Shown piece after piece: positions 14 through 26,137 of a DNA stretch of 59,921 nucleotides (positions are counted from its first letter, which is position 1; every line of letters begins with the position of its first letter). Source of the DNA: Bacteroidales bacterium (lineage in GTDB: Bacteria > Bacteroidota > Bacteroidia > Bacteroidales > WCHB1-69); contig JAEEIG010000055.1 of the NCBI GenBank assembly GCA_016281255.1, positions 1 to 59,921 of the forward strand, read 5' to 3'. Made by a program: the position numbers and the translations under genes. The notes beneath the pieces are model-generated. The model was not told where the DNA came from. It worked only from the letters and a program-made list of their open reading frames with translations, and searched no databases.

Positions 14-193
14 CTATTCAGGTTTGTTTTCGGACTCTTTCTCCGCAGGTTTCTCCTCCTTGCCGTCCATGCCGTTCTTGAAGGAGCGCACACCCTTGCC
101 AAGTCCGCTCATCAGTTCGGGAATCTTCTTGCCACCGAACAAAAGCAGCACAATCAGGGCGATGATGATGATCTCTGTCATTCCTATTCTCAT
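14..193 (-). CDS. tatA: twin-arginine translocase subunit TatA/E (59 aa, shorter than the ORF-track cutoff)
   Basis: Reverse-strand ATG at 193..191 and TAG at 16..14. The translation [59 protein letters not shown] shows an N-terminal TM helix, the FGxxKxPE hinge and an amphipathic helix typical of TatA. A further ATG (13..11, MSET...) follows the stop and runs off the window, which is where tatC would be expected. That stretch is too short to call. Confidence 0.85.
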
Positions 194-209: not shown

Positions 210-235
210 GACTTAAGACGTAAGACTTAAGACTT
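210..235. repeat. heptamer tandem array (GACKTAA) x3.7, left arm of composite element E1
   Basis: Read directly: gacttaa gacgtaa gacttaa gactt. It is the reverse complement of the CTYAAGT units at 317..413. Confidence 0.9.
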
Positions 236-316
236 TTGGGGTCTTACGTCAAGTTCTGATAATTTGTCAAATAATCCCTTTTTTTGTTTTTTTCCTTTGT
301 TTGCAATTCATATAAT

Positions 317-413
317 CTCAAGTCTCAGTCTTAAGTCTCAAGTCTTAAGTCTTAAGTCTTAAGTCTCAAGTCTTAAGTCTCAAGTCTTAAGTCCCAAGTC
401 TCAAGTCTCAAGT
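317..413. repeat. heptamer tandem array (CTYAAGT) x14, right arm of composite element E1
   Basis: Fourteen consecutive units were counted. One is a 6-nt unit, ctcagt. Variation is almost only C/T at position 3. The stop codon of the DUF721 gene (408..410) lies in the last unit. Confidence 0.95.
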
Positions 414-701
414 CCTGAACATGATATCCGTGACCAACGGGCCGAAGTCTACCTGTATTTTCTTGATTATCTGGGATTTGTGTCCAAAGAGCTCGAATTT
501 GAGCGCGGCGTTCTGCACGCGCACATAGAGGATGCCGTTGCGCAGGTCTTCGCACTTCGAGAACTGGGCGCACATCGGCCCGACGTATTCCGGCCACCGT
601 TCGAACAGCATCTGCTTGTCCATCAGATGCTGCTTCCCCGACTGGCTCACGAACCGCCCGATCAGTTCCTTCAAATTCATTTCATGACTATCTCTTTCCA
701 T
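408..701 (-). CDS. DUF721 (DciA-like) small protein
   Basis: 97-aa ORF with ATG at 701..699. An alternative start is M8 at 680. The sequence ...NLKELIGRFV...WPEYVGPMCAQFSKCEDLRNGILYVRVQNAALKFELFGHKSQIIKKI resembles DUF721 family proteins. Assignment is by motif memory only. Confidence 0.7.
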   Translation of the reverse strand: MERDSHEMNLKELIGRFVSQSGKQHLMDKQMLFERWPEYVGPMCAQFSKCEDLRNGILYVRVQNAALKFELFGHKSQIIKKIQVDFGPLVTDIMFRT

Positions 702-5722: not shown

Positions 5723-8108
5723 CCTCTGGCTTTTCATCTTTCTGCTCCTCAGCAGTGTATGCATGTTCTCCTGCAGCTCCGTCCGGCACCTCCCCGATGG
5801 AGAAAGCATGCTGGTCAGAAACAAGGTGAAAGTGGTGGACGCCAAAAGCCCCGACTTCGACAACCTCGCCTCCTACGTGCGCCCCGTCACCAACAAGAAG
5901 TTCATGGATATCTTCCGCATCAAAACGGTATTCTATGACTGGGGAACTCCCAAACTCCTCCCAAACGGGGAATATAAAGACACCAAATTCCGCAAGTTCC
6001 TGCGCGAGAAGATCGGCGAAGCCCCCGTCCTGCTCGACAGCACCGATATCACCAACTCCATCGACCAGCTGAAAATCGTCATGAAACAGCTCGGATACTT
6101 CGATTCGGAGGTCAACTACAACGTCTCCTTCCTGGGGAAAAAGAAGAAAAAGTCCAAGGTGGACTACTTCGTCACCGCCCACGACCCCTACTTCATCAGC
6201 CATGTGGAATACGACATCACCATCCCCGAGTACAAGCGGATCATGGTCATCCACCAGAAAGACAAGCTCCTGCACGACGGGATGCAATACAACGAATCCG
6301 TCATCAACGACGAGCTCACCCGCATCATCAACCTGATCCGCAACGAGGGGTACTACTATGTGGAGAAGTCCATCATCCGGTGCGAGGTGCAGTACGACCC
6401 GCCCGACAGCCTCGGCCACGACCCCAAAACCGTGAGGCTCACCATCATGATGAAGATCCCGCAGAACGAGAACGCCGCCCGCTACCTCTACAAATACCGC
6501 TACCACAACAACTACGTCTGCCCCGACCAGGAGTCGATGGCGACGCAGACCACGGGTTTCGACACCACCTACTACCGTTATACCAGCCGGCGCGACACCT
6601 CCAACTTCTTTTTCATTGAGGAGCTGAAAATCGACGGCAAGGAGCTGAAACCCTACTTCTCCTACAAAACCCTCGCCAACGCCATCTACACCTACAGCGG
6701 GGACGCCTACACCCAGATGGCGAGAACCAGCAGCAGCCGCGGACTGTCGAGCCTCGACAACTTCGACTACGTCAGTATCCTGTTCCGCGAGGACGAGTCG
6801 CTGCTGGACACCGTCAACAAGACCGGCTACCTGGACGTCATCTACCAGATGATCCGCAAAAAGCAGCACAGCGTGGGCGGACAGATAGAGCTGCGCAACG
6901 ACAAATCGGACATCTCGCTCACCTACACCAACCGCAACATCTTCAAAGGCGCCGAACACCTCTCCATCAACCTCTCGGGCGGCTATTACTACTACTCCCT
7001 CAACAACCTCTTCCGCAACAACACCTACTCCTACCCCGAATTCGGTATCACCGTCAAGCTCGACATCCCCAACCGCATCCTCCTCTTCAACCGCCACATC
7101 CGCGACGGAGCCGTCTCCAAAAGCACCGCCTTCAACTTCGGCGTCAACTACTCCGGACTCTACCGCCGGCTGGTTTACAACGCGTCGCTCACCTACCGAT
7201 GGACCCCCTCCTATTACATCTCCCACAGCTTCAGTCCGATAGACGTCAGCACCATCAACAACAGCGACAAGCGCATCACCTACCTGCTGAACTACGACAA
7301 ATATCCGGACTCCTACCAGAACAAGTTCGGCAAATTCATGCTCTTCTCCACCAAATACACCTTCAACTACCTGGTGCCCAAGTTCGTGAATTCCCGCAAG
7401 CACAACATGAACCTGAACATTTCCGGCGAGTCGTCCGGACTGCTCCTGAAGGGGCTGAACGCCCTTTTCGCCCCCAAAGAGCGCTGGGTGATCGGCCAGA
7501 ACGGGCTCGACAGCACGGGATACGACTACACCACCTTCGAAAAGGTGGAGGTGATGTGGAACTACACCTATTCCATCGACAAGGAGAACGCCGTCGCGAT
7601 GCGCGCCGACATCGGGGTCATGATCCCCTTGGACAAGGAGTCCTACGTCCCCTACGAAAAGGGGTTCTACATGGGCACCAGCAACAGCATGCGCGGCTGG
7701 GGCTACCGCGGACTGGGCCCCGGCAGCTACAAACACGGTTCCGACACGCTCTACACCGGCGACATCAAGATGGAGTTCAACCTCGAATACCGCGGCACCA
7801 TCTACCGCTCCATCAAATACGGCATCTTCGCCGACGTGGGCAACATCTGGCTCTCCCGCAAGGAGGCCGACATGCCCGGCGCGGAATTCTCCTTCCAGCG
7901 CTTCTACAAGGAACTCGCCTTCGACGCCGGCGTCGGACTGCGACTCGACTTCGACTTCTTCGTCATCCGCCTCGACTGGGCCATCCCCATCTACGACCCC
8001 ACCCGCGTCTCCGAACAGGGCTATTTCATCAACAAACGGTGGTTCAATCCCCCGCACGCCTTCAGACTGTTCCAAGGGCTGAAGTTGGCCATCGGATATG
8101 CCTTTTAG
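5712..8108 (+). CDS. Omp85 (BamA/TamA) family outer-membrane protein
   Basis: Signal/lipobox-like N-terminus (LLLSSVCMFSCSS). The C-terminal barrel carries Bac_surface_Ag-type motifs (MRGWGYRGLGPGSY, GIFADVGNIW, GVGLRLDFDFFVIRLDWAIPIYDP). It overlaps mreD by 11 nt. Confidence 0.8.
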   Translation: MKRNLWLFIFLLLSSVCMFSCSSVRHLPDGESMLVRNKVKVVDAKSPDFDNLASYVRPVTNKKFMDIFRIKTVFYDWGTPKLLPNGEYKDTKFRKFLREKIGEAPVLLDSTDITNSIDQLKIVMKQLGYFDSEVNYNVSFLGKKKKKSKVDYFVTAHDPYFISHVEYDITIPEYKRIMVIHQKDKLLHDGMQYNESVINDELTRIINLIRNEGYYYVEKSIIRCEVQYDPPDSLGHDPKTVRLTIMMKIPQNENAARYLYKYRYHNNYVCPDQESMATQTTGFDTTYYRYTSRRDTSNFFFIEELKIDGKELKPYFSYKTLANAIYTYSGDAYTQMARTSSSRGLSSLDNFDYVSILFREDESLLDTVNKTGYLDVIYQMIRKKQHSVGGQIELRNDKSDISLTYTNRNIFKGAEHLSINLSGGYYYYSLNNLFRNNTYSYPEFGITVKLDIPNRILLFNRHIRDGAVSKSTAFNFGVNYSGLYRRLVYNASLTYRWTPSYYISHSFSPIDVSTINNSDKRITYLLNYDKYPDSYQNKFGKFMLFSTKYTFNYLVPKFVNSRKHNMNLNISGESSGLLLKGLNALFAPKERWVIGQNGLDSTGYDYTTFEKVEVMWNYTYSIDKENAVAMRADIGVMIPLDKESYVPYEKGFYMGTSNSMRGWGYRGLGPGSYKHGSDTLYTGDIKMEFNLEYRGTIYRSIKYGIFADVGNIWLSRKEADMPGAEFSFQRFYKELAFDAGVGLRLDFDFFVIRLDWAIPIYDPTRVSEQGYFINKRWFNPPHAFRLFQGLKLAIGYAF

Positions 8109-8171
8109 GTTTACAGGTTTACAGGTTTACAGGCTTACAGGTTTACAGGCTTACAGGTTTAGGCGTTTACG
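8108..8171. repeat. octamer tandem array (GGYTTACA) x8, inverse orientation of the CCTGTAAR family
   Basis: Units read: ggtttaca x3, ggcttaca, ggtttaca, ggcttaca, ggtttagg, cgtttacg. The array starts on the last base of the Omp85 stop codon. It also contains the stop (8151..8153) of the minus-strand four-helix-bundle gene. Confidence 0.95.
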
Positions 8172-8589: not shown

Positions 8590-8650
8590 ACAAGATAATT
8601 TTGAATAATAAAGGAAAACCAACAATTCTTCCAACACCACAATGTTAACA

Positions 8651-8690
8651 ACCCTAAGCCCCTAAACCTGTAAACCAGTAAGCATGTAAA
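8651..8690. repeat. octamer tandem array (CCNNTAAR) x5
   Basis: Units read: accctaag cccctaaa cctgtaaa ccagtaag catgtaaa. It is inverted relative to the array at 8108..8171. Confidence 0.9.
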
Positions 8691-8766
8691 CTATTGAGAA
8701 TCAGCACTGTTAATAACACTGTTTATAAAAATTCCGGCAAGGGTGACAACCTAAAAACGGAATTAT

Positions 8767-8774
8767 TATTTTTG
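8767..8774 (+). promoter_or_regulatory. -7 promoter box TATTTTTG driving the riboswitch-nrdDG transcript
   Basis: Perfect TAnnTTTG match immediately upstream of the riboswitch. Confidence 0.6.
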
Positions 8775-8777
8775 CAC

Positions 8778-8950
8778 GGGTTCAGGTTCTCCTGCAGATT
8801 AAAAGGGAACGCTGTGAGAATCAGCGACTATGCCCGTAGCTGTGAGTTCCGATTTGGCGCCCTCCCCAATATGTCACTGGCCTTTTCCGGGCCGGGAAGG
8901 CGGGGAGAGAGCGGGGACAAGCCAGAAGACCTGCCTGAAACCGCAGATCG
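8778..8950 (+). promoter_or_regulatory. cobalamin (B12) riboswitch
   Basis: Conserved blocks were read directly: AAAAGGGAACGCTGTGAGAATC, GCCCGTAGCTGT, TGTCACTGG...CCGGGAAGGC, and the B12 box AAGCCAGAAGACCTGCC (8919..8935). It lies in the 5' leader of nrdD. Confidence 0.85.
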
Positions 8951-9040
8951 TAGCTTTCGGGATTAAGAGCCGACGAGAAAAGCAGACAAGTGCAATTTCT
9001 CCCTGAGCTGTTTTATTAACCACCAAAACCTTAACCAGTA

Positions 9041-11131
9041 ATGGATCAACTGTACATCATCAAACGTAACGGCAAGCGGGAGCCCTTCTCCGCCGAAAAA
9101 ATCAAAAACGCCATCGCGAAAGCCTTCCTCTCCGTGAACAGCTTCGCCACGCAAGACGTGCTCATCAACGTCATGAGCCGCCTCAAAATCCATGACGGCA
9201 TCTCCGTGGAGGAGATCCAGAACCAAGTGGAGGTCTCCCTCATGGCCGAACGCTACTACGAGGTGGCCAAAGCCTACATCCTGTACAGACAACGCCATTA
9301 CGAGGACCGCGAGGTGAAGGAGAAACTCGACTTCCTCATCAACTACTGCAACGCCTCCAACGCCGCCACCGGCTCCAAATACGACGCCAACGCCAACGTC
9401 GAGAAGAAGAACATCGCCACCCTCATCGGCGAACTCCCCAAGTCGAACTTCATCCGCCTCAACCGCAGAATGCTCTGCGACCGCATCAAGGACCTGTACG
9501 GCAAGGAACTGTCCGACAAATACCTCTACCTGCTCAACCACCATTTCATCTACAAGAACGACGAGACCAGCATCGCCAACTACTGCGCCTCCATCACCAT
9601 GTACCCCTGGCTGCTCGACGGCACCAAGAGCATCGGCGGCAACGCCTCCGCCCCCACCAACCTCAAGTCCTACTGCGGCGGCTTCATCAACATGGTCTTC
9701 ATGGTCTCCAGCATGCTCAGCGGCGCCTGCGCCACCCCGGAGTTCCTGATGTACATGGACTACTTCATCCGCAAGGAATACGGCGACGACTACTACCAGC
9801 ACAGCGACAAGGTGGTCGATCTCTCCGTGCGCCAGCGCACCATCGACAAGATGATCACCGACTGCTTCGAACAGGTGGTCTATTCCATCAACCAGCCCAC
9901 CGGAGCGCGCAACTTCCAGTCCGTTTTCTGGAACGTGGCCTACTACGACCGCTACTACTTCCAAAGCCTCTTCGGCGAGTTCCGCTTCCCCGACGGCTCC
10001 AAGCCCATCTGGGACTCTCTCAGCTGGCTGCAGAAACGCTTCATGCGCTGGTTCAACCAGGAACGCCTCCGCTCGGTGCTCACCTTCCCCGTCGAAACCA
10101 TGGCCCTGCTCAGCAAAGACGGCGACATCATCGACTCCGAATACGCCGACTTCACCGCCGAAATGTACGCCGAAGGCCACTCCTTCTTCACCTATGTGAG
10201 CGACAATGCCGACTCCCTGAGCAGCTGCTGTCGTCTGCGCAACGAAATCCAGGATAACGGCTTCAGCTACACCCTCGGCGCCGGCGGCGTCTCCACCGGC
10301 TCCAAAAGCGTGCTCACCATCAACATCAACCGCTGCATCCAGTACGAATGCCGCAACAACATCCCGCAATTCCAGTTCGTGGAAGAGGTGATCGACCTCA
10401 TGCACAAGGTGCAGATCGCCTACAACGAAAACCTCAAATACCTCCAGTCCAAAGGCATGCTGCCGCTCTTCGACGCCGGCTACATCGCCATCAACCGACA
10501 GTATCTCACCATCGGCGTCAACGGACTGGTGGAGGCCGCCGAATTCCTCAGCATCCCCATCGACGACAACCCGCAGTACCAGAAATTCGTCGAAGACACC
10601 CTCGGACTCGTGGAGAAATACAACCACCAGTACCGTTCGAAGGAGCTGCTCTTCAACTGCGAGATGATCCCCGCGGAGAACGTGGGCGTCAAACACGCCA
10701 AATGGGACCGCGAAGACGGCTACCGCGTGCCCCGCGACTGCTACAACAGCTACTTCTACCGCGTGGAGGACGACTCGCTCAACCTGATCGACAAGTTCCG
10801 CCTCCACGGCTCCCGCTACATCGCGCACCTCACCGGCGGCTCCGCCCTGCACGCCAACCTCGAAGAACACCTCTCCCAGCCCCAATACCGTCAACTGCTC
10901 CGCATCGCCGCCCAGGAAGGCTGCAACTACTTCACCTTCAACATCCCCAACACCGTCTGCAACGACTGCGGCCACATCGACAAGCGCTACCTCCACGAAT
11001 GCCCCGAATGCCACAGCCAGAACCTCGACTACCTCACCCGCGTCATCGGCTACATGAAACGCGTCAGCAGCTTCTCCCAAGCCCGCCAAGAAGAAGCCTC
11101 CCGCCGCCACTACGAAAAGGCCACCATTTAA
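9041..11131 (+). CDS. nrdD: anaerobic ribonucleoside-triphosphate reductase (class III)
   Basis: N-terminal ATP-cone (MDQLYIIKRNGKREPFSAEKIKNAI). C-terminal Zn site CNDCGH...CPECHS and glycyl-radical motif TRVIGYM. Confidence 0.95.
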   Translation: MDQLYIIKRNGKREPFSAEKIKNAIAKAFLSVNSFATQDVLINVMSRLKIHDGISVEEIQNQVEVSLMAERYYEVAKAYILYRQRHYEDREVKEKLDFLINYCNASNAATGSKYDANANVEKKNIATLIGELPKSNFIRLNRRMLCDRIKDLYGKELSDKYLYLLNHHFIYKNDETSIANYCASITMYPWLLDGTKSIGGNASAPTNLKSYCGGFINMVFMVSSMLSGACATPEFLMYMDYFIRKEYGDDYYQHSDKVVDLSVRQRTIDKMITDCFEQVVYSINQPTGARNFQSVFWNVAYYDRYYFQSLFGEFRFPDGSKPIWDSLSWLQKRFMRWFNQERLRSVLTFPVETMALLSKDGDIIDSEYADFTAEMYAEGHSFFTYVSDNADSLSSCCRLRNEIQDNGFSYTLGAGGVSTGSKSVLTININRCIQYECRNNIPQFQFVEEVIDLMHKVQIAYNENLKYLQSKGMLPLFDAGYIAINRQYLTIGVNGLVEAAEFLSIPIDDNPQYQKFVEDTLGLVEKYNHQYRSKELLFNCEMIPAENVGVKHAKWDREDGYRVPRDCYNSYFYRVEDDSLNLIDKFRLHGSRYIAHLTGGSALHANLEEHLSQPQYRQLLRIAAQEGCNYFTFNIPNTVCNDCGHIDKRYLHECPECHSQNLDYLTRVIGYMKRVSSFSQARQEEASRRHYEKATI

Positions 11132-11183
11132 GAAACACTTCCATAACAGCCTCGGAGAGGCTGAACGCGCGAAGCGCAATTAA

Positions 11184-11268
11184 CCCCACACAAGCGCAGC
11201 GCAGTGTGGGGCCCACTGCCCCGACCACCGTGTGGGGCTCATCTCCCCCACAGCAGTGTGGGGCCCAT
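11184..11268. repeat. GTGTGGGGCYCA repeats and hairpins in the nrdD-nrdG spacer
   Basis: There are three copies of GTGTGGGGC(C/T)CA, starting at 11204, 11230 and 11257. Two are preceded by complementary CCCCACA(C), giving hairpins CCCCACAC-N12-GTGTGGGG and CCCCACA-GCAG-TGTGGGG. Confidence 0.8.
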
Positions 11269-11276
11269 CAAAAACT

Positions 11277-11734: not shown

Positions 11735-12475
11735 TTAAAAGGTTTTCGGGGTTTTAGGATTGATCATGGTGAACGTATCCTCCCCGCTCAATTTCAGGGT
11801 GAAAAGGCCCTGTTTTTGAGCATATCCGACGGCTTTCCCTTTATAGCTGATGGCGGCCATGGCACCATAGACTGTCTTCTCTCCAAATCTCGGAAAATAG
11901 TACCGGAATTTCTGCATTTGTTGAATGAAATACTTCACATCCTCCACAGAACAGGTGGTTTTCACTTCAACAGCGACGAGTACCGAGCAGTTCTCCAAAA
12001 GGACATCCACTTCCATCTTATCCACCCCATTGACAGTAGCCTTGATGGATTCGCCTTCCCTGTATATATTTTGGATACCGATGCCAAGGTCTTTGAACAA
12101 CTTCAAGGCAGCCGGTGCACACAGTGCCTCCACCAGACGCCCCCACTTCGTGGCATTCTCATCTCTCAAACGCTTCGTCTCCTCTTCCGATTTTTTCATC
12201 CACTCTTTGAACTCCGCATGTTTTCTTTGGTCCTCTTCCAACATACGATCCCATTTCGCCATCATCATTTCGCAAAAGTCCTTATGGGCTTGGCGTTCCT
12301 TTTCCCAATGCTCCTCTTTGGTCTTGCGCTCAGCTTCCCACTGAGCTTCCCGCTCGGCTTTCTCCTTGAGATACCGATTGTAGTTTTCATCCATTCGACG
12401 GCCATTTTCTTTCACGGATTCCAACAACGCCCCGAAGTCGGGGAACGGATAATTTTGAATACTTTGATTTTCCAT
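11735..12475 (-). CDS. hypothetical protein: N-terminal charged coiled coil plus C-terminal PD-(D/E)xK-like nuclease fold (DUF3782-like)
   Basis: 246 aa. Residues ~25-110 are E/K/R/W-rich heptad-like (AEREAQWEAERKTKEEHWEKERQAHKDF). The C-terminus reads ...GVDKMEVDVLLENCSVLVAVEVKTTCSVEDV, consistent with a D...E.K restriction-endonuclease-like core. The gene is AT-richer than the core genes. Confidence 0.7.
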   Translation of the reverse strand: MENQSIQNYPFPDFGALLESVKENGRRMDENYNRYLKEKAEREAQWEAERKTKEEHWEKERQAHKDFCEMMMAKWDRMLEEDQRKHAEFKEWMKKSEEETKRLRDENATKWGRLVEALCAPAALKLFKDLGIGIQNIYREGESIKATVNGVDKMEVDVLLENCSVLVAVEVKTTCSVEDVKYFIQQMQKFRYYFPRFGEKTVYGAMAAISYKGKAVGYAQKQGLFTLKLSGEDTFTMINPKTPKTF

Positions 12476-12512
12476 AATGATTGATTATAATGAAACATAA
12501 AATGAACATCCG

Positions 12513-12520
12513 CAAAAATA
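12513..12520 (-). promoter_or_regulatory. -7 promoter box TATTTTTG for the 11735..12475 gene
   Basis: The plus strand reads caaaaata, a perfect TAnnTTTG on the minus strand, 38 nt upstream of ATG 12475. Confidence 0.55.
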
Positions 12521-12754
12521 CAACACAAAACAATACCCACCACGAACCCTAATAAAATTTTTTTACCCCTGAAAGTCAGATCTTTATAAATTTTCCAAGA
12601 AACAAATTAACAAACAATTGTAAAATAAAACAAAGGAATTCGGAGAATTCAGAAAGAGATACCGAAAATCAAAACAGATCCCGTCCCGCCACCGCATAGA
12701 GAACCCCTTGCCATACCCCCTCCCCAAAACCCGGAATCATTAGACAAAAAAAAA

Positions 12755-12772
12755 GCCCCGCAAACGCGGGGC
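12755..12772 (-). terminator. rho-independent terminator of the 18125->12795 surface-protein operon
   Basis: The minus strand reads GCCCCGC-GTTT-GCGGGGC followed by T9 (the plus-strand A-run at 12746..12754). It lies 23 nt downstream of the stop at 12795. Confidence 0.8.
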
Positions 12773-12794
12773 CTTATATGCTAAAATATGCTTA

Positions 12795-14159
12795 TTATTG
12801 AACAGTAACAGATTTTTTTAAGACAGGACATCCATCTTTTGCCAACTTGAAAGTCAAAACTTGACCAGTGGTTAAGGGATAACATTCGCCTTCATAAACG
12901 TTATCTGATACCTGTACCCATGTAAGCAATTGTCCAACCGGGAAGTACAAGCCATTTTCATCATCAACAGTAAGAATGTTATTTACATTATCATTCAAAT
13001 TAAATCCTGCCACTTGAGCTGTTAATTTATTAATATGGGCAGTAGGATCTGCTGTGAAATAAGGACAACCAGCAGCTTTGGCCTTTGCATTTTCGAGTTC
13101 CTCTTTCAAATCACAAACAGTAGTAGTACCACATGCTTTAACATAATTGTTGCCAATGTAGCTTTCCAAGTAGGAATCGAATTTATTCTTAAGCTGTGTG
13201 TAAAGGGCAGGATTCTGATCACGCAGAGTAGCGTAAATTTCCTGAACATCCTGATACTTCAACACATTTTTGATATAATACTCGGCAACGGTCATCATGA
13301 GTTCCTTATGATTCATGACATAAACGATGGCGCTGTCGCGAACAGCATTGAAGATTTCATGGAACTGGGGATTCTCGCGGGCAGCGTTCCAAAGATCCTT
13401 GACCTCTTCCTTCGTGGTGTTCGTGAGATAATATTCGGCAATTTCGTAAGCCAGTTTCTTGTTGGCCTTGATGGAATCGACCAGCATTTCTTTGAGTTTC
13501 TGCTTCACTTCAGGGGTAACGGCGTTGTAAGCGTCCTTGGCGTCCTGAACAGAAGCATTGCCAATGAAGTAGAGAGCCAGATCCTTCACCGTGGCAGGCT
13601 GGGACTTGATGTAGCTGACGATGCTGTCTTTCACCGCTTTGGAGACAGAGGCATTGTTAAACAAAGCCGTGACGATTTGACCGACATCCTCACCTTTGGT
13701 GTTAGGATTGCTGAGATATTCAACAATCTTCGCGGTGGTGATATCCAAAGGATCCTGCACAGATTGCAGAGCCAACGGGACGGGCATCACAGGATTGATC
13801 ACCTCGGAGAGGGTAGTGGTGCCTGCAGCATCCATGAAGGTAGCCTTGATGATGGCATTGTTCCAATCAATGTTGGCAGGGATAGGATTCTTTTCCCCGA
13901 TGATGAAGGAAACCATACCGTTGCGGTTGGTCATAACATCCAAAGTGGTGGAATAGGCAGCACCAGCATAGTCGACTTGAAAAATCTCCACTGTTACTTT
14001 AACAGCTTCGTTCATCACCAAGTTGAAGTCGTGGTTTTGGTCACGAACCACTGCCTGATAATTAAATTTGGCTTGGGGGACTTGTTGATCCGCCGTCTGG
14101 GCCGAAAGGATGCTCACGCTTACGAAAAGCATCACTAAAAAGGTTAAAATCTTTTTCAT
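12795..14159 (-). CDS. secreted hypothetical protein, paralog of 16011..18125
   Basis: Signal peptide MKKILTFLVMLFVSVSILSAQ. N-terminal beta module ...KFNYQAVVRDQNHD...TNRNGMVSFIIGE. Three ~45-aa helical repeats (..KDSIVSYIK....LALYFIGNASVQDA.. / ..AEYYLTNTTKEEVKDLWNAA.. / ..AEYYIKNVLKYQDV..). Cys-bracketed C-terminal module ending ...CPVLKKSVTVQ. Confidence 0.85.
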   Translation of the reverse strand: MKKILTFLVMLFVSVSILSAQTADQQVPQAKFNYQAVVRDQNHDFNLVMNEAVKVTVEIFQVDYAGAAYSTTLDVMTNRNGMVSFIIGEKNPIPANIDWNNAIIKATFMDAAGTTTLSEVINPVMPVPLALQSVQDPLDITTAKIVEYLSNPNTKGEDVGQIVTALFNNASVSKAVKDSIVSYIKSQPATVKDLALYFIGNASVQDAKDAYNAVTPEVKQKLKEMLVDSIKANKKLAYEIAEYYLTNTTKEEVKDLWNAARENPQFHEIFNAVRDSAIVYVMNHKELMMTVAEYYIKNVLKYQDVQEIYATLRDQNPALYTQLKNKFDSYLESYIGNNYVKACGTTTVCDLKEELENAKAKAAGCPYFTADPTAHINKLTAQVAGFNLNDNVNNILTVDDENGLYFPVGQLLTWVQVSDNVYEGECYPLTTGQVLTFKLAKDGCPVLKKSVTVQ

Positions 14160-14198
14160 TGTTTTATTGTTTTTATTATTAATTATTATCGTTGAATA

Positions 14199-15956
14199 TT
14201 ATTGTTGAACATTAATAATTGTTGAAAATTCGTCGCATGTAGCAGACTCAGGGGTACTAACTTTAACTGATGTCACACTGCCGAAAGCCTGTACAAAATA
14301 ATCATCGGCATTCCATACGTAAGTACCATCAGCATTTATACCTGCACTTTTAAAATAAGATGTTGATTGTCCATCAATAAAAGTAACATATTCAATAGTC
14401 ACCGCATCAGAAATCTGACCAACAGTATAACCAATTACTGTTCCAGAGACACCATTAGGAATATTGCTGGTGGTAGTAGCAGAATAAAAGAATTGAGCAG
14501 TGATATCAGTGATAGTGCATGCAGGTTCTTCGTATTCAGGCATAAGTTCAACAGGAATATCCTTATAATCAGAACCAGTACAGATTTGGCCATCATAAAG
14601 AATGGTTGCAGTTGTATTGATTGCAACAAGTTCCATGTCAACGATAGAGACGCCTGGATTATTTTCTAAGGCTTGCTCTTCATTGTAAAACCAACTATAT
14701 TGAGGATTGTTGCCAGTATTTTCAAAAATAACCGTTTGACCATTAACAGATGCATCACCCTGAAGAGTCACGGTTTGCTCTGCATTTGTAGGAACACCAT
14801 AAACGGCTTCATAATGAACAGTGACATTACTTATTTTACTGGCATCATAATTATTGACAGCAAAGTAGTAACCTAAATCACCCACATTAGATACAGTACC
14901 AATAGTCGGGCAATCAGTTGTAGGAGGAGGGGTGGGAATAGGTGTAGGGTTAGGTGTGGGATCATCTTTATGATAATCATAAAGCATATCGAGGACGCAG
15001 CGCACGCTCATGGCGTCGGCGGTGTCATTGCGAGGCTCCTGTTTCGGCTTGTCGCAATAGTAGAGAATCTGGAAGTAGTTGGGTTTGCAAGTGGAATCGT
15101 TGTCGGCGAACCAGAAATCAGCTTCGCTGTGGTAGCCTTCGAAACGCTCGGCTAAGCCTTTGTAATAACCGGAAGGCTGGGCGGAGAACTTGGTGAGGTT
15201 GGTGATGTTCTCGGCAACCACCCAATAGTCACCCTCTGCACTGCGCAGATCGTCGGTGTTCTTCGCAAGGATAAGGGCAGTCTCGGCTGCGGTGGGAAGG
15301 TGCCAACCGCAAGGACAGATACCGGTCTTGTAGATGGAATCGCAATCAGAGCCCACGGCCTGATTCCATTTGTAGAGCAGACCGAAGGTATCGACATTCA
15401 GGGAGCTGACGATCTCGGAAGTGTAGCTCATGGTCTCCACATCTTCACCGGCGCAGTTCGTGGTCGTGCGCATATTGCTCTTGGTCCAGCAATGGGTGTT
15501 GTCGATAGCGATGACCTCGTAGGGGTTGCCGTCGGCATCGTCCACCGTGCACGGACACACAAAGAGGTGGAGCACTAAGAGCTGGTCGTAGTTGTAAATG
15601 GCGCTATTCGGATGCTGGATTGTGAGGAAGGTGTCGCGGGGACCATCATCGGCGAATTCGTCCACGATCTTTTGGACGTCGGCCACGGTAAGTTTAAACT
15701 CACCGATTGTCAGGCTGTCACCGCAGCCAACCACGGTCTCGAGGGTGTCGCCGACGATCTGTGCCTGTGCAAGACCTTCAGCCGCTTGGTAAGGATTGGC
15801 GCCGAAGTCAATGTCGCCGAACATCTGTCCGAAGACTGCGTAGGTCTGGTTGCCGGCGGCACCGGGCACGAACCCACGCACTGTGTTATGGTTCTGCGCA
15901 AAGGTAAAACCTGCGCAAAGAACCATGATCATCATAATCAGAAAATTCTTTTTCAT
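14199..15956 (-). CDS. secreted protein with FISUMP (Fibrobacter succinogenes major paralogous, TIGR02145-like) domain
   Basis: Signal peptide MKKNFLIMMIMVLCAGFTFAQ. FISUMP signature: DADGNPYEVIAIDNTHCWTKSNM...LLYKWNQAV...CPCGWHLPTAAE...FSAQPSGYY...ADFWFADN...SVRCV. A Pro/Thr linker (DPTPNPTPIPTPPPTT) is followed by C-terminal beta modules starting CPTIG and ending ...TIINVQQ. Confidence 0.85.
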   Translation of the reverse strand: MKKNFLIMMIMVLCAGFTFAQNHNTVRGFVPGAAGNQTYAVFGQMFGDIDFGANPYQAAEGLAQAQIVGDTLETVVGCGDSLTIGEFKLTVADVQKIVDEFADDGPRDTFLTIQHPNSAIYNYDQLLVLHLFVCPCTVDDADGNPYEVIAIDNTHCWTKSNMRTTTNCAGEDVETMSYTSEIVSSLNVDTFGLLYKWNQAVGSDCDSIYKTGICPCGWHLPTAAETALILAKNTDDLRSAEGDYWVVAENITNLTKFSAQPSGYYKGLAERFEGYHSEADFWFADNDSTCKPNYFQILYYCDKPKQEPRNDTADAMSVRCVLDMLYDYHKDDPTPNPTPIPTPPPTTDCPTIGTVSNVGDLGYYFAVNNYDASKISNVTVHYEAVYGVPTNAEQTVTLQGDASVNGQTVIFENTGNNPQYSWFYNEEQALENNPGVSIVDMELVAINTTATILYDGQICTGSDYKDIPVELMPEYEEPACTITDITAQFFYSATTTSNIPNGVSGTVIGYTVGQISDAVTIEYVTFIDGQSTSYFKSAGINADGTYVWNADDYFVQAFGSVTSVKVSTPESATCDEFSTIINVQQ

Positions 15957-16010
15957 ATCTTTATTTTTTTACTTTTCTAGAACTTAATTACTTGCAACAC
16001 AATACGAGGG

Positions 16011-18125
16011 TTATTGTTGAACAGTGATAGAGAAAGTCTTCTTCAACACACAATTTTCATTTGAGTTGAAGAGAGCAGGGATAGTGCATGTCACTGTATA
16101 GTAACCAGAGGATTCGATAGTGACAGTCTTGCCGGTTTGAGAATAACCAGTGCTTTCCCATTGGTATGTAGGTACTACATCTACACCGTACTGATTGCCA
16201 TATTTCTCGACAATCTGCTCAACTGAAGGCCAGTGAGTGCCGAACTCATTGGAACCAATATAAATACCATTTCTAACGGTAAACGCCGTAGGTCCGGTAA
16301 CAGGAGATTCAGGAGAAATAAAAAGATCGAATTGACGGAGTGTAATGGTTACACCATCTGAGTATTGGCCATAAAACTTGTCATTGCCACATTCAACATA
16401 AGGACGGACTAAGATAGTTTTACCACAGAAGTTCATCTTGATGGTATCAGAAACCGTCAATCCATCATTACTTAAAACCGCAGGAGAATTTGTGTTATGC
16501 AATGGTGTCCATTCTCCATCTCCCATTTTATATTCGAAACCGCAGTTCGCGCTCGTATTTTGATAGTAGTTGTTTGTCATCGTAGCCGTCAGAACAACAC
16601 CATGGTAGTTAATCAAATCACCGGCTGCATCAGAAGTGTGTGTGAAAGAAGCGATATCGGGACATTCACATGGTCCTTGACATTCGATTGCTGTAGCAGG
16701 TCCAAAAGTTTCGGTATCCATACATTCGGCTGTCATCTTAGGTCTCACACTAATATTGCGATTTTTATATTCCTGAGGTAATGTTGCTGTTATTTCATCC
16801 CCATTTACCGTCGCTTGAATAAGGACTGCGGAATAATTGCTATTCGGGAAAGTTAACTCATACCATGCTTGAATGTTATTAGCATTGCCGTTATTAGTAA
16901 AGGGTGTTTTTAATTCATCGTTAGTAGCAGTGTAGGTGGTTGCGCCGATCGTAGGACAAACCACAGTGCCATAATCCTTGAATTGTTCAATTTCGTTCAT
17001 CAAGGCACAGAGTTCAGTAATATCACATTGGACCTTTTGGTATTGGTTTGCAGCCATGTATTCGTCAATAAGATCATTCAGGATACCCTTGGCGGTGTCA
17101 TACGCGGCGGGATTGTTCGTCTTGGTGTAATTCTGGAGCGTGAAGACATCTTCCGCGGTCAGGTGTCTGACAACGTATTTAGCGGTTTTCGTGGCCAGTT
17201 CAGGATTCCTTTTGATATACTCGTTAACGCTGTCCACGATCATTTTGGCAATCTCATACACTTGCGCATTGTTCATAGCGGCGTTCCAGAAGCCGGAGAC
17301 ATCCTCCTTGGTGGTCTGGCCGATGTAATATTTCACGAGGTTATAGGCTTCCGTTCTGTGGTTTTTGATGTATTTCACGACGGTGTCCTTCACAAACTCC
17401 ACCACGTCCTGGCTGACAGTATCGGCGGCGTTTTCAACATCTTCGGGAGTGATCAGTCCGATGAAATAGAGGGCAAGTTCCTTGGTTCTGCCGGGGTTGC
17501 GTTTAATGGCATTGGCCACAGAGTCGCGCAGGGCGTTCATGAAGGGTACGTTACCGGTGATGGCTTCATCGACGGCAGCCACATCGTTGGTCTTGGCATT
17601 TTCGATGTACTTCACAATTCTCGGGGTCGTGATGTTTCTCTTCATGAAAGTTTTGTAAGCGAAAGGCACGGGAAGGATCTCCATGGTGTCCATGATTCCG
17701 TATTCGGGGATGGCCAGGACGACCTTGGCGTCTTGCCATTCGATCTCGTTGAACCATTTGAGATTCACCGTTGCGTTAACCGTATTAGGGATTTGGTAGC
17801 CGTCCGGCAGCGCCACCGGTTCGTAGTCGCTCAGTGTCAGGGAAAGCATACCGTTCATGTTGGTGGTAACCTGCGGGGCAATCATGCCGTTTCCGGTACC
17901 ATGTTCGGTAAAGGCCCACACCTTGGCGACATTGCCAGTAGCTTCGACAACAGCCACATAGACATTCATGGACTGGTTGTACACCAAGTCATTGGGTGCA
18001 AATGCGCCCACAGAATCCGTTGTCTGGTTTCGAACTATCATCTGATAGCTGAGGCTTGGCGCTTGGGCCAACAACGTGCTCACTGTCACCAGGAGCATCG
18101 TGAAAAGGGTTAAAATCTTTTTCAT
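16011..18125 (-). CDS. secreted hypothetical protein, paralog of 12795..14159
   Basis: Signal peptide MKKILTLFTMLLVTVSTLLAQ (the first 18 nt are identical to the 14159 gene). N-terminal module LSYQMIVRNQ. Three helical repeats (LALYFIGLITPEDV / VKYYIGQTTKEDVSGFWNAA / AKYVVRHLTAEDV). C-terminal Cys-rich beta modules (VVCPTIG...) ending ...CVLKKTFSITVQQ. Confidence 0.88.
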   Translation of the reverse strand: MKKILTLFTMLLVTVSTLLAQAPSLSYQMIVRNQTTDSVGAFAPNDLVYNQSMNVYVAVVEATGNVAKVWAFTEHGTGNGMIAPQVTTNMNGMLSLTLSDYEPVALPDGYQIPNTVNATVNLKWFNEIEWQDAKVVLAIPEYGIMDTMEILPVPFAYKTFMKRNITTPRIVKYIENAKTNDVAAVDEAITGNVPFMNALRDSVANAIKRNPGRTKELALYFIGLITPEDVENAADTVSQDVVEFVKDTVVKYIKNHRTEAYNLVKYYIGQTTKEDVSGFWNAAMNNAQVYEIAKMIVDSVNEYIKRNPELATKTAKYVVRHLTAEDVFTLQNYTKTNNPAAYDTAKGILNDLIDEYMAANQYQKVQCDITELCALMNEIEQFKDYGTVVCPTIGATTYTATNDELKTPFTNNGNANNIQAWYELTFPNSNYSAVLIQATVNGDEITATLPQEYKNRNISVRPKMTAECMDTETFGPATAIECQGPCECPDIASFTHTSDAAGDLINYHGVVLTATMTNNYYQNTSANCGFEYKMGDGEWTPLHNTNSPAVLSNDGLTVSDTIKMNFCGKTILVRPYVECGNDKFYGQYSDGVTITLRQFDLFISPESPVTGPTAFTVRNGIYIGSNEFGTHWPSVEQIVEKYGNQYGVDVVPTYQWESTGYSQTGKTVTIESSGYYTVTCTIPALFNSNENCVLKKTFSITVQQ

Positions 18126-18349
18126 TGTACTTATTTTTTTGTTATTACTATTATTTCGTCGTTAATTTGATTTGCTATTATATATATACTATATTAACTC
18201 AACTGCGATTCTTGTCCTCCGGCATCCAAATAGCACAAAACGCACGGAAAAATGCAAACCCCGAAACGGGCTTGTCCATGCGTAACCAACTGCTATTTAG
18301 ACACTTACTAAATATCATTCTACACTATTTTACACTATAATTCAAGTCG

Positions 18350-18512: not shown

Positions 18513-18549
18513 TAATATAAAAAGATTGGCCGACAGGCCATCCTTTTTA

Positions 18550-18589
18550 GATGATAAGATGATGAGATAATGAGATGATGAGATGATGA
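18550..18589. repeat. octamer tandem array (GATRATRA) x5
   Basis: Units read: gatgataa gatgatga gataatga gatgatga gatgatga. Two mutually inverted small hairpins flank it: ATTGGCC-GACA-GGCCAT (18525..18541) and ATGGCC-TTAC-GGCCAAT (18589..18605). Confidence 0.9.
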
Positions 18590-18751: not shown

Positions 18752-21247
18752 CTAAACAACAGCGAAGCTGATCAGCCGCACCGCGAAGGCGGCGAGCCAG
18801 GCGACGGCCGTGGTATAGAAGATGACGAAGAGCATCCATTTGCGGCCGGCCTCGCGACGGATGGCGGTGACCGCCGCCACGCACGGGAAATAGAGCAGGA
18901 TGAAGACCATGAACCCGTAGGCCACCCACGGGGTGAAGACCGGCTTGCCGATGTCGGGACCCGACGACCATGTGTGTGTGCGCAAACTCCGCTGCAACGC
19001 CGAGCTGTGCTCGTCGGCCTCCGCGTCGCTGTGGTAGAGCACCCCCATCGAGGCCACCACGATCTCCTTCGCCGCGAAACCGGTGATGATGGAGACCCCC
19101 ATCTGCCAGTCGAAGCCCAGCGGGCGGAAGACCGGCGCGATGAACTTGCCGAACCGTCCGAGGTAGGAGTTCTCGATCTGGCAGGCGGATCGGTCGAGCT
19201 CCAGCTGCGCGATCCGGGCGTCCCTGTCGGCCTCGCTCAAACCGGCATCCGCCTCCACTTGCTCGATCCGGGCGGTGTAGCCGTCGATTTGCGGACTGTG
19301 CTGCGGGAAATACTCCAGCGCCCAGATGATGACCGTGGCCACCAGAATCACCGTGCCCATCTTCTTGAGATACTGCACGCTCTTGTCCCACATGTGGACC
19401 ATGGCGTTGCGGAAGGTGGGGATGCGGTAGGGCGGCAGCTCCATCACGAACTGGTCGCGCTCGTTCTGGAAAGCGGCCTTCTTGACGATCAGCGAGGTGA
19501 CGATCGACATGACAATGCCGAGCAGGTATATGGAGGTGAGCACCAGTCCCTGGTGCTTCACGAAAAAGGCGGAGATGATGAGCGTGTAGAGCGGCAGCCG
19601 CGCCGAACACGACATGAACGGGATGGTGATGATGGTGAGGATGCGGTCCTTGCGGTTCTCCAGGGTGCGGGTGGCCATCACGGCGGGCACGCTGCAGCCG
19701 AAACCGATGATGTAGGGGATGAACGACTTGCCGTGCAACCCCATCCGGTGCATCAGCTTGTCCATGATGAAGGCGGCGCGCGCCATATAGCCGGTGTCCT
19801 CCAGAATGGAAATGAAGAAGAAGAGGATCAGGATGTTAGGCAGAAATGAACAAACGCCCCCTACCCCGGCGATGATGCCGTCAACCAGCAGGTTCTTGAG
19901 GATGCCGTCGGGCAGCACACGGGTGACGACATCGCCGAGCCAGCCGAAGAAGCTCTCCAGCCACGCCTGCGGATAGGCACCCAACGTGAAGGTCATCTGG
20001 AACATGAACCAGAGGAAGAAGACCAAAATGGGGAACCCCAGCCATCTGTTGGTCAGTATTTTATCAACAGAATAGGCCGGCTGCTTGCTCTTGTCCCGGC
20101 CTTGGGTGTAGGTTTCGAGGAGGGCGCCGCGCACGAAGCCGTACTTCGCGCCGGAAACGATGGTGGCGGCATCCTCGTTGTAGCGTTTCTCGATGATCGC
20201 CCGCTGCTCGCCGGCCACTTTGGCGACGCTGCCGTCATCGTCGAATTTGCCCACCAACTCGGTAATCACCTTGTCGCCGGCCAGCATCTCGATGGCTAAA
20301 TAGCGGGTGGAATAAGCCCCCGAAAGGTCCAGGTGTTCCCTCATCTCCTCCTTGATGATGTCGATGGATTTCTCCAGATCCACGCCATAGTTGATATGCA
20401 CATGCTTGGTGTGCTCCTCGAGGTTCTCGTAGAGGTCCACGATACGGGCCATCACCTCGTCGATGCCGGTGCCGCGCGAGGAGACCGTGGGGACGATGGG
20501 GAAGCCGAAGAGTTCGCTGAGGGTGGCGATGTCGAGGGTGTCGCCGTTGCGTTCCAGTTCGTCGTACATGTTGAGGGCCATCACCATGGGCACGTTCATG
20601 TCGATGAGCTGGGTGGTGAGGAAGAGGTTGCGTTCCAGGTTGGAGGCATCGGCAATGTTGAGCACGATGTCGGGACGCTCGTCCATGATATACTGGCGCA
20701 CATAGAGCTCCTCGGGCGTGTATTCGGTGAGCGAATAGGTGCCGGGAAGGTCGGCGATCTCGATGGTGTAGTCGCGGAAAGGGTGATAGCCCACCTTGGC
20801 ATCCACGGTGACGCCGCTGTAGTTGCCCACCTTCTCCCTCATGCCGGTGACGTGGTTGAAGAAGGAGGTCTTGCCGCAGTTGGGGTTGCCCACGAGGGCG
20901 ACGCGGATGCGCTTGCCGGCCTTGCCGAGGATGCGCTCGGTCTCCTCGGTGATGGTGCCGTGGAAAAGGTAGTTGTTGGCGATCTCCTCGGTGACGGGCA
21001 CCACCTCGACACGACGCGCCTCGATGCGGCGCAGCGAGACGTGACCGCCCATGATTTCGTATTCGATGGGGTCGCGCAATGGGGCATTCCGGATCACCTT
21101 CACCTTCTCGCCTCGCACGAAGCCCATCTCCATCAACCGGTGACGGAAACTGCCGTGACCCGTAATTCTCACAATCACACCATATTCGCCGGTCGGAACG
21201 TCGGCGAGAGTCAACACTTGTTTGCTACTGTCTTCCTTGTTTATCAT
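18752..21247 (-). CDS. feoB: ferrous iron transporter FeoB with N-terminal FeoA domain fusion
   Basis: FeoA-like SH3 domain (LADVPTGEYGVIVRITGHGSFRHRLMEMGFVRGEKVKVIRNAP), then the G domain (IRVALVGNPNCGKTSFFN, DLPGTYSL) and a polytopic permease. Confidence 0.95.
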   Translation of the reverse strand: MINKEDSSKQVLTLADVPTGEYGVIVRITGHGSFRHRLMEMGFVRGEKVKVIRNAPLRDPIEYEIMGGHVSLRRIEARRVEVVPVTEEIANNYLFHGTITEETERILGKAGKRIRVALVGNPNCGKTSFFNHVTGMREKVGNYSGVTVDAKVGYHPFRDYTIEIADLPGTYSLTEYTPEELYVRQYIMDERPDIVLNIADASNLERNLFLTTQLIDMNVPMVMALNMYDELERNGDTLDIATLSELFGFPIVPTVSSRGTGIDEVMARIVDLYENLEEHTKHVHINYGVDLEKSIDIIKEEMREHLDLSGAYSTRYLAIEMLAGDKVITELVGKFDDDGSVAKVAGEQRAIIEKRYNEDAATIVSGAKYGFVRGALLETYTQGRDKSKQPAYSVDKILTNRWLGFPILVFFLWFMFQMTFTLGAYPQAWLESFFGWLGDVVTRVLPDGILKNLLVDGIIAGVGGVCSFLPNILILFFFISILEDTGYMARAAFIMDKLMHRMGLHGKSFIPYIIGFGCSVPAVMATRTLENRKDRILTIITIPFMSCSARLPLYTLIISAFFVKHQGLVLTSIYLLGIVMSIVTSLIVKKAAFQNERDQFVMELPPYRIPTFRNAMVHMWDKSVQYLKKMGTVILVATVIIWALEYFPQHSPQIDGYTARIEQVEADAGLSEADRDARIAQLELDRSACQIENSYLGRFGKFIAPVFRPLGFDWQMGVSIITGFAAKEIVVASMGVLYHSDAEADEHSSALQRSLRTHTWSSGPDIGKPVFTPWVAYGFMVFILLYFPCVAAVTAIRREAGRKWMLFVIFYTTAVAWLAAFAVRLISFAVV

Positions 21248-21267
21248 TCTTCGGCTGATTTACGGTT

Positions 21268-21300
21268 GATTTAAGACGTAAGACTTGAGACTTTAGACTC
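21268..21300. repeat. heptamer array (GAYKTRA) x4.7, left arm of composite element E2
   Basis: Units read: gatttaa gacgtaa gacttga gacttta gactc. The 16-mer TTAAGACGTAAGACTT is identical to that in the 210..235 array. Confidence 0.9.
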
Positions 21301-21381
21301 TTGGGGTTTTTCGTTAGTTTGTATACTTATTATCAAATGTTATCTTGATATTCTTATTTCTTTCTTTTTTTACCTACTTCT

Positions 21382-21437
21382 CCTAAGTCTCACGTCTCAA
21401 GTCCCAAGTCCCAAGTCTCAAGTCTCAAGTCTCAAGT
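21382..21437. repeat. heptamer array (CYYAMGT) x8, right arm of composite element E2
   Basis: Units read: cctaagt ctcacgt ctcaagt cccaagt cccaagt ctcaagt ctcaagt ctcaagt. Confidence 0.95.
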
Positions 21438-21479
21438 CTAATTCAACGTGCAAAAGTGCATTTTTCCGAAAAACAGGGC

Positions 21480-21501
21480 ATCCCCAAAAATGGGGATTTT
21501 T
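21480..21501. terminator. hairpin ATCCCCA-AAAA-TGGGGAT plus T-run (canonical on the plus strand)
   Basis: 7-bp stem followed by TTTTT on the plus strand. On the minus strand it lies 22 nt downstream of the 21523 stop, but the T-run there is displaced (GCCCTGTTTTT). Confidence 0.55.
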
Positions 21502-26118: not shown

Positions 26119-26137
26119 GCGTGTAAGCGTGTAAGCC
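26119..26137. repeat. octamer repeat (GCGTGTAA) x2.4 immediately after the stop codon
   Basis: gcgtgtaa gcgtgtaa gcc begins on the base after TAA 26116..26118. Confidence 0.8.

Follow-up and report, generated by a model that had tools for sequence, protein, structure and literature searches.

Bacterial heptamer arrays have a literature that goes back decades, as the short tandemly repeated repetitive (STRR) sequences of cyanobacteria, as long simple sequence repeats (LSSRs) and as TAACTGA repeats, and their function is mostly unresolved. In cyanobacteria, STRR heptanucleotide repeats that can form hairpins are found between the hupS and hupL genes and also ahead of hoxW (PMC2670836). Heptamers are the commonest unit of LSSRs, as relayed in PMC4679880 (citing Mrazek et al. 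2007), and the roles proposed for STRRs and LSSRs are transcript stability, termination and translational coupling (PMC2670836, PMC4679880). TAACTGA repeats occur just before start codons in Beggiatoaceae, cyanobacteria and five Bacteroidetes (MacGregor 2015, PMC4679880), and heptamer repeats in Nostoc affect the expression of recO and recF (bioRxiv 10.1101/2022.06.06.494920). Only one mechanism has been worked out in the literature that we compared: the 5′ untranslated region (UTR) of H. influenzae hmw1A contains an (ATCTTTC)n array that forms a long hairpin, which is cleaved by RNase III (Rapun-Araiz et al. 2025, PMC12721329), and a larger number of repeats lowers expression (PMC12721329). 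Here, we analyse two inverted pairs of heptamer arrays, E1 and E2, which lie upstream of tatA and of feoB in 59,921 nt of DNA from a Bacteroidales bacterium (contig JAEEIG010000055.1). This whole stretch, called the window below, matches bovine and sheep rumen metagenomes, and its closest FeoB homologues, at most 93% identical, are labelled as Bacteroidales.

We find that E1 and E2 are very probably not a transposing unit with its own promoter, as had been proposed from the sequence, and that their build is a variant of the heptamer arrays already known as a class. Arrays of 7-8-base units are a lineage-wide class that accounts for a large part of the DNA between genes in this clade of uncultured rumen Bacteroidales. 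Our preferred reading, to which we give a probability of roughly 55%, is that E1 and E2 are fast-changing, slippage-driven arrays of the STRR/LSSR type, arranged as inverted pairs, which form a hairpin in the transcribed spacer or 5′ leader before tatA and feoB. The two elements and their neighbouring genes are laid out as follows.

14-193, minus strand: tatA, 59 aa, PF02416 (Pfam)
210-235, minus strand: E1 proximal arm, (AAGTCTT)x3.9 in tatA sense with one ACG variant (Tandem Repeats Finder (TRF), pattern search and unit parse)
236-242, minus strand: E1 junction TTGGGGT, ACCCCAA in gene sense, the sole part of the core common to E2 and to the elements of related genomes
236-316, no strand assigned: E1 core or loop, 81 nt, 28% GC, 51% T, A-rich in gene sense
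258-276, no strand assigned: imperfect palindrome GATAATTTGTCAAATAATC inside the E1 core
317-414, minus strand: E1 distal arm, 14 CTYAAGT units, GACTTRA in gene sense
408-701, minus strand: dciA-like gene, 97 aa, PF05258 (Pfam), upstream of tatA in the same orientation
18752-21247, minus strand: feoA-feoB fusion gene, 831 aa (Pfam)
21271-21299, minus strand: E2 proximal arm, units GACGTAA, GACTTGA and GACTTTA
21300-21384, no strand assigned: E2 core, 85 nt, 27% GC; junction TTGGGGT (21301-21307)
21385-21439, minus strand: E2 distal arm, 8 units (CTCACGT, CTCAAGT, CCCAAGT and others)

The original prediction was thus right that the arms are reverse complements bracketing an AT-rich core (28% GC in E1, against 53.5% for the window) and that a second element of the same build exists, at 21271-21439. 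The 16-mer TTAAGACGTAAGACTT that the two were said to share occurs exactly twice in the window, at 213 and 21271. The 12-mer AAGTCTYAAGTC, allowing at most one mismatch, has 24 matches in the window, every one within E1 or E2; shuffled sequence gives a mean of 0.41, and 24 was reached in 0 of 100 shuffles. In E1, TRF reports period-7 arrays at 209-235 (3.9 copies, 90% matches) and 316-414 (14.3 copies, 87% matches), the latter also with a 14-nt super-period, TCTTAAGTCTCAAG. The unit parse gives GACTTAA, GACGTAA and GACTTAA on the left, and CTCAAGT, CTTAAGT and CCCAAGT with a single 6-nt ctcagt on the right, where the dciA stop codon (410-408) falls within the last unit of the arm. The ctcagt had been taken for a mirror of the ACG variant in the left arm; other samples read ctcaagt there, so it is a 1-nt deletion of an ordinary unit. 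Nor is the ACG unit unusual, since GACG units are common in such arrays elsewhere. The predicted spacing of 16-20 nt between arm and ATG holds for E1 (16 nt) and fails for E2, where the proximal arm lies 23-27 nt from the feoAB ATG (21247).

The cores are a different matter. The junction motif CTTGGGGT, thought to be common to both elements, is found only in E2, and what is shared is the 7-mer TTGGGGT (236 and 21301). Identity between the cores, put at about 70% by eye, corresponds to a local score of 25 versus 18.5 ± 3.1 in dinucleotide shuffles (p ~0.04) when the junction is included; without it, p is ~0.2, no better than for shuffled T-rich DNA. The 19-bp palindrome at 258-276 is present (8/9 + 1 + 8/9), but 2% of shuffles yield one as good, and E2 has no counterpart (best 6/9). 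Weak -7-like boxes (4/6) lie within it on both strands, with ATTATTTG at 275-268 on the minus strand. A Fur-box reading of the palindrome was set aside: it matches the classical consensus at 11/19 positions, and it precedes tatA, not feoB. Neither element matches an Rfam 15 family at the gathering score, and the sub-threshold hits, all to eukaryotic miRNA-precursor models, were dismissed as hairpin artefacts. No tRNA was found.

Among the known systems, E1 and E2 resemble STRRs and LSSRs. They share 7-nt tandem units, many intergenic copies per genome and the capacity to form hairpins, and we find here head-to-tail units beyond chance, many loci, an intergenic bias and unit-step change between strains. 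The phylum and the units differ, and so does the recurrent two-arm build, with its ACCCCAA junction, a short arm fixed by the start codon and, in some cases, AT-rich loops of 80-90 nt. TAACTGA repeats likewise form heptamer arrays a few nucleotides before start codons, have units that contain stop codons, precede genes of unrelated function and are missing from the same site in close relatives. However, almost all of them are direct repeats (there is one indirect set) of 2-6 copies, whereas here we see inverted pairs and many coexisting unit families, in about half of the spacers. At hmw1A/hmw2A, a heptamer array within the 5′ UTR, between promoter and start codon, forms a long hairpin with a complementary arm and varies in unit number by slippage; E1 and E2 would share this arrangement if they are transcribed, as our preferred reading has it. 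There, however, the second arm is a G-rich region instead of an inverted copy of the array, and a pathogen's one phase-variable adhesin locus is involved rather than a genome-wide feature. RNase III cleavage and copy-number dependence have been demonstrated at hmw1A/hmw2A, whereas we infer them for E1 and E2. In the literature, our coverage of which was incomplete, we found no description of such array density in a rumen clade, of complete unit turnover between close relatives, or of a two-arm element with an ACCCCAA junction beside a start codon; this is absence of evidence.

The two-arm architecture recurs in other genomes. Elements were found in related rumen Bacteroidales metagenome-assembled genomes (MAGs), where they sit before unrelated genes, and in one metagenome contig.

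RGIG1517: two-arm elements at L001, L004 (twice), L027, L057 and L112
RUG13189: two-arm elements at L077 and L085
RGIG6723: two-arm elements at L060 and L106
L148: two-arm element in a rumen metagenome contig from a scan for the radical-SAM protein encoded next to dciA

Thirteen Bacteroidales elements have a common arm order, junction and closeness to the ATG. In gene sense, a distal (GACTTRA)n array, which often begins at the stop codon of the upstream gene, is followed by a core of 14-92 nt, the junction (ACCCCAAA, close to CGWAARACCCCAAA), a proximal (AGTCTWA)3-6 array, often with one ACG unit, and the ATG 3-40 nt on. Further copies, which the prediction had anticipated, thus exist (L001, L004 twice, L085, L077 and L148), together with core-less forms (L027, L057 and L112), simple hairpins whose loops measure 16-19 nt. 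Rumen metagenome contigs add many further two-arm loci in which the spacer is short, in several cases with ACCCCAA at its end. The composite element is therefore a recurrent architecture and not two chance arrays, as proposed; what finds no support is its description as a mobile promoter cassette. Across elements the cores are non-homologous, and only the junction is conserved.

Array-armed hairpins of other kinds were also seen. In L198 and L199, one with a 3-nt loop lies directly after the feoB stop codon. A scan of a genome collection for the CTYAAGT unit gave at least 117 loci in many phyla, a set that is ascertained by the search pattern; for this reason, horizontal spread was not inferred from the matches in Acidobacteriota, Planctomycetota, Myxococcota and cyanobacteria. 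Several Acidobacteriota loci (L014, L016, L021, L073 and others) have near-perfect hairpins with arms of 4-5 units of the CTYAAGT heptamer, in the opposite arm order (AAGTCYC ... GACTTGR) and with loops of 5-30 nt, that of L073 directly after a TAA resembling a gene's stop codon. Such hairpins are common in Pyrinomonadaceae MAGs, and array-armed hairpins are therefore not confined to Bacteroidales.

The arms of E1 and E2 belong to a much larger population of arrays. The window holds 13 intergenic-type arrays with a period of 6-9 and at least 3 copies, versus 0.4 in block shuffles, and two arrays span the entire gap between co-oriented genes. Apart from E1 and E2, arrays in the window include the following, none with a strand assigned.

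704-722: TCTTATCC array
1379-1469: (TAAACCTG/TAAGCCTG)x10, in the divergent spacer between a radical-SAM (rSAM) gene and a GNAT gene
8107-8170: (AGGTTTAC)n, with the inverse array (TAAACCTG)n at 8650-8691
18549-18589: AGATGATG array
26116-26136: TAAGCGTG array
47449-47487: (AAACCTG)x5.6, occupying the whole 39-nt gap between two co-oriented genes
49823-49855: (CCTTTTG)x4.7, similar in kind to the array at 47449-47487

For a wider census, the window was combined with 34 orthologous rSAM-dciA-tatA loci (281 kb), collected in a metagenome scan with the neighbouring radical-SAM protein (72-100% protein identity). Exact-protein look-ups with DciA and FeoB had given no match, and homologues were used. 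The set contains 151 arrays, 90 of period 7 and 33 of period 8, although the loci are orthologous and the counts are not independent. Most arrays (125 of 151) are intergenic, and 83 of 177 intergenic gaps hold one. At more distant Bacteroidetes loci arrays are patchy (20 of 46). Among strains with 98.5-99.9% identity over 18.5 kb, most differences are 7- and 14-nt indels within arrays, the signature of slippage. The octamer count also differs between L118 and L120, and other samples show E1 with its defective 6-nt unit lost and with a 1-nt change within that unit. At the long E1 and E2 arms themselves, contigs from other samples break in the repeat.

Two further points concern the units themselves. 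It was considered whether units of the TRRGACT type form arrays of stop codons in three frames; this fits arrays after stop codons, and it is not general because, for example, the (AGGTTTAC)n array after the stop codon at 8108 has the opposite orientation. In the dciA-tatA and nearby spacers of L122, L123, L134, L146 and L147, the units CCCTAAA, TAACCCA and TTAACCC are identical or close to eukaryotic telomere repeats, which is probably a coincidence of A/C-rich, G-poor composition.

Comparison of orthologous sites shows how the arrays change. In every relative, the dciA-tatA spacer consists of tandem arrays, and their units are wholly different between relatives. In L118, whose rSAM protein is 99.5% identical, two GACTTGA units are followed by (TAAACNNG)n up to the tatA ATG; in L119 the spacer is 43 nt; and in L121-L147 other heptamers are present, with a terminator hairpin in some. 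The coding flanks, by comparison, align cleanly, up to the stop codon and again from about 6 nt before the ATG. Since L118, L120 and L125 already carry 2-3 GACTTGA units after the dciA stop, where the window has 14, the E1 distal arm is an in-situ expansion. Between rSAM and dciA, L148 has a two-arm element, whereas in L149, with 99% identity to it in the neighbouring coding sequence, an unrelated spacer of 45 nt takes that place. The element is gained or lost between close relatives as a whole-spacer replacement, never as a clean insertion with a duplicated target.

This pattern bears on whether the heptamers could be cooperative binding sites for a regulator that acts on DNA or RNA, such as ribosomal protein S1, a Csp protein or some other factor, a role that has been proposed for the TAACTGA repeats of Beggiatoaceae and the heptamer repeats of Nostoc. 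Placement immediately before start codons matches the TAACTGA pattern (PMC4679880), deletion of a heptamer repeat in Nostoc altered recO promoter responses (bioRxiv 10.1101/2022.06.06.494920), and the proximal arm and junction are conserved. But many unrelated units are interchangeable at one orthologous site, which argues against a single sequence-specific binder, and no candidate protein was identified here. We consider protein-binding arrays quite improbable.

The orthologous sites also bear on the original prediction of a mobile promoter cassette resembling a miniature inverted-repeat transposable element (MITE), that is, a non-autonomous element with array-type terminal inverted repeats (TIRs) and an AT-rich core that supplies a promoter. 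Like MITEs, repetitive extragenic palindromic (REP) sequences and bacterial interspersed mosaic elements (BIMEs), which can influence the expression of neighbouring genes, E1 and E2 are small, non-coding, intergenic, dispersed and built of inverted repeats. The arm-junction-arm build before unrelated genes in several genomes would fit such an element, as would absence from orthologous sites of very close relatives (L118, L119 and L120 for E1; L198-L202 for E2; L149 versus L148). These sites, however, are not empty as predicted: they are filled with unrelated arrays or small elements, so no clean insertion boundary can be drawn. The arms are variable tandem arrays, not fixed TIRs or palindromes, and one of the E1 'TIRs' pre-exists in relatives. 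No target-site duplication was found, the flanks of E1 (GATTTATA / CTGAACAT) and of E2 (TTGATTTAA / TAATTCAAC) containing no direct repeat; the outer flanks of E2 are inverted relative to each other. The cores range from 14 to 92 nt and are non-homologous beyond a junction of ~12 nt, and in four rumen metagenomes the E1 core has the depth of its flanks, as expected for single-copy DNA, with the arms 20-40 times deeper. No linked transposase or RAYT was identified, no search having been aimed at a partner transposase. Of the claim that a whole element was copied, what survives is that the conserved junction and proximal arm suggest some inter-locus copying; the cores are unrelated.

A second family of dispersed elements was noticed during these comparisons. 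Its members are small and intergenic, with short GC hairpins that have GAAG-type loops, in the order TTCCTTGAGCAG, CCTCGAAGAGG, AAAACGCGCGAAGCGCAA, CCCCACAC..GTGTGGGG. They occur in the window (11147-11270 and 59009-59270) and in L001, L113, L139, L142, L148, L149, L198 and L199. In the leaders of relatives' tatA and feoB genes, they occupy the exact places that E1 and E2 have in the window. The member at 59009-59270 is a 51-nt x5.2 tandem repeat on the minus strand, with a unit related to this family.

The promoter half of the cassette proposal fares no better. A sigma-70 scan is uninformative for Bacteroidetes, and a scan for TAnnTTTG was calibrated on the window's own genes instead, which have a clear box of this type (TATYTTTG), mostly 11-50 nt from the ATG. 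In gene sense, E1 has no TAnnTTTG box at 5/6 or better, even though the organism clearly uses that box. In the dciA-tatA spacers of relatives (43-163 nt, with arrays up to the ATG), no promoter box was seen by eye, no scan having been made. Upstream of feoB, two further features lie outside E2.

21451-21458, minus strand: -7-like box CACTTTTG, a 5/6 match, directly outside the E2 distal arm
21480-21497, minus strand: terminator-like hairpin ATCCCCATTTTTGGGGAT with a T run, which relatives also have ahead of their feoB promoter box

In relatives, the sequence upstream of feoB contains a terminator hairpin (ATCCCCAWWWWWGGGGAT) and a box, GCAYTTTTGCA, whose G lies 20 nt from the feoB ATG in L200-L202, which have no E2; in L198 and L199, another small element of ~100 nt occupies the position of E2. 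The window retains both conserved features just outside E2. Because the genes of this organism use the TAnnTTTG box and CACTTTTG scores 5/6, the box at 21458-21451 is likely the ancestral feoB promoter; E2 would then lie within the 5′ UTR. The E2 core also contains AACATTTG in gene sense, a 5/6 match to the -7 box. In favour of a promoter within the elements, the cores of E1, E2 and the second element of L004 (L004b) have an A-tract and then an ATTTG-type motif 16-26 nt before the junction. Against it, four of the eight cored elements, inspected by reading their sequences, have no gene-sense TTTG. Taking mobility and promoter function together, we regard a MITE-like cassette as very doubtful.

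A hairpin in RNA is predicted. When folded in silico in gene sense, E1 reaches -67.7 kcal/mol (z -7.8) and E2 -57.9 kcal/mol (z -6.0), and the arms of both are paired in the minimum-free-energy and the centroid structures. E1 does not resemble an intrinsic terminator: no terminator-like site was found within 1-800, and in gene sense the arms of both elements are followed by A-rich, not U-rich, sequence. Transcription across the cores is suggested by RNA contigs. One, X25, at a depth of 8.9, spans 20800-21389 and thereby the whole E2 core; another, X35, from a run labelled 'RNA?', covers 141-344 and thereby the whole E1 core.

These observations can be joined into a mechanism. Replication slippage would grow, shrink and turn over the arrays in unit steps, as is shown in the relatives and is likely for E1 and E2. 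The inverted pair consists of a long distal array that abuts the upstream gene or promoter and, after the conserved ACCCCAA(A) junction, a short proximal array (3-4 units) 15-27 nt from the start codon. The whole element would be transcribed, E2 as part of a feoB 5′ UTR driven by the conserved promoter just outside it, and E1 as part of a dciA-tatA co-transcript. Paired, the arms are predicted to give a duplex of ~25 bp whose loop is the AT-rich core. Translation in Bacteroidetes starts without Shine-Dalgarno pairing and relies on unstructured, A-rich leaders; since the leader needs to be single-stranded, a hairpin 15-27 nt before the ATG could occlude it and damp translation. The hairpin might also offer a site for RNase III-type processing, uncoupling the downstream from the upstream mRNA, or it might stabilise or protect RNA ends. 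In each case, unit number would tune the strength of the effect.

Several observations weigh against this reading. The RNA data are assembled metatranscriptome contigs of low depth, which carry no strand or 5′-end information, break in arrays and may include DNA. At E1, contigs from three runs end at 264, 238 and 194, with no coverage of 265-329 there. The ends at 264 and 238 lie within or beside the E1 core and would suit either a terminator or an internal start, the latter also expected if the core supplied a promoter; the depths of dciA and tatA are uncoupled between runs, which fits the same two explanations. An internal transcription start in E1 is therefore possible. If selection acted on the RNA, an asymmetry in pairing between sense and antisense strands (G-U versus C-A) would be expected; it is weak, with 9 of 13 elements favouring the sense strand. 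Finally, the conserved ACCCCAA junction is not explained by pure slippage, and suggests some copying between loci.

The hairpin could also be selectively neutral, and we regard a neutral origin as a serious rival, if a somewhat doubtful one. In that case, E1 and E2 would be by-products of slippage, which expands arrays where they are tolerated, and of template switching or inverted duplication at hairpins, which generates inverted pairs; they would have no role in expression. The extreme turnover, with wholly different units at one site in close relatives, is as expected, as are the patchy occurrence across Bacteroidetes, the presence of CTYAAGT-type arrays in many other phyla, the weak strand asymmetry and the lack of any association with gene function. 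The E2 inverted repeat reaches ~10 nt into the flanking ancestral sequence (CGTTGAATTA vs TTAAATCAACCG), which fits an inverted duplication in situ. What a neutral origin does not readily account for is the strand bias of arrays just before start codons, which in the sense strand are A/C-rich and G-poor (A 0.38, C 0.23, T 0.26, G 0.13; C exceeds G in 59 of 78). Nor does it account for the constraint on the proximal arm (3-6 units, 3-40 nt from the ATG) or the conservation of the junction across loci and genomes. Arrays also often fill whole co-oriented gaps, and expression of the downstream gene must therefore at least tolerate them.

A more ambitious alternative starts from the junction. The array hairpin, with its ACCCCAA junction and its proximal arm of 3-4 units, might be a dispersed leader module that moves from one intergenic site to another by being copied, through recombination or template switching at the arrays, and might act genome-wide ahead of start codons as a slippage-tunable switch processed by RNase III. 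This strikes us as rather unlikely. If true, array-built spacers would be a general means of tuning expression in this clade, in a phylum that initiates translation without Shine-Dalgarno pairing.

On our preferred reading of slippage-driven arrays that form leader hairpins, this lineage is an extreme natural case, in which about half of the spacers are array-built, turnover is complete and a hairpin recurs at start codons. If such hairpins are processed or occlude leaders, they would amount to widespread and rapidly evolving post-transcriptional control in abundant, uncultured rumen bacteria, and would bear on how Bacteroidetes initiate translation without a Shine-Dalgarno sequence. There is also a practical side, in that short-read assemblies break at such arrays, which can also pass for mobile elements or for promoters.

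Several other features of the window were noted. The inverted octamer arrays at 8107-8170 and 8650-8691 flank a 166-aa gene of low GC content (0.32 at third codon positions, GC3), whose product is a PF05635 '23S rRNA intervening-sequence' four-helix-bundle protein. The segment 8107-8691 has the look of a foreign cassette bounded by array-type arms, and resembles E1 on a larger scale. Just beyond it, at 8767-8952 on the plus strand, a cobalamin riboswitch (RF00174, 114.7 bits) precedes the gene at 9041-11131, and a 90-aa open reading frame (ORF) at 8694-8966 is therefore spurious. Four large minus-strand genes at 11735-18340 have a GC3 of 0.49-0.57, versus ~0.8 elsewhere, and by this compositional measure the block is possibly a horizontally acquired locus. 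Upstream of feoB, a short minus-strand ORF at 21523-21798 is similar to the C terminus of the long CHU_C-type proteins encoded ahead of feoB in relatives, and is probably a gene remnant. This ORF overlaps the nominal GTG start (21616) of a 1500-aa BcrAD/BadFG-type activase gene on the opposite strand, the true start of which is, given the overlap, probably further downstream.

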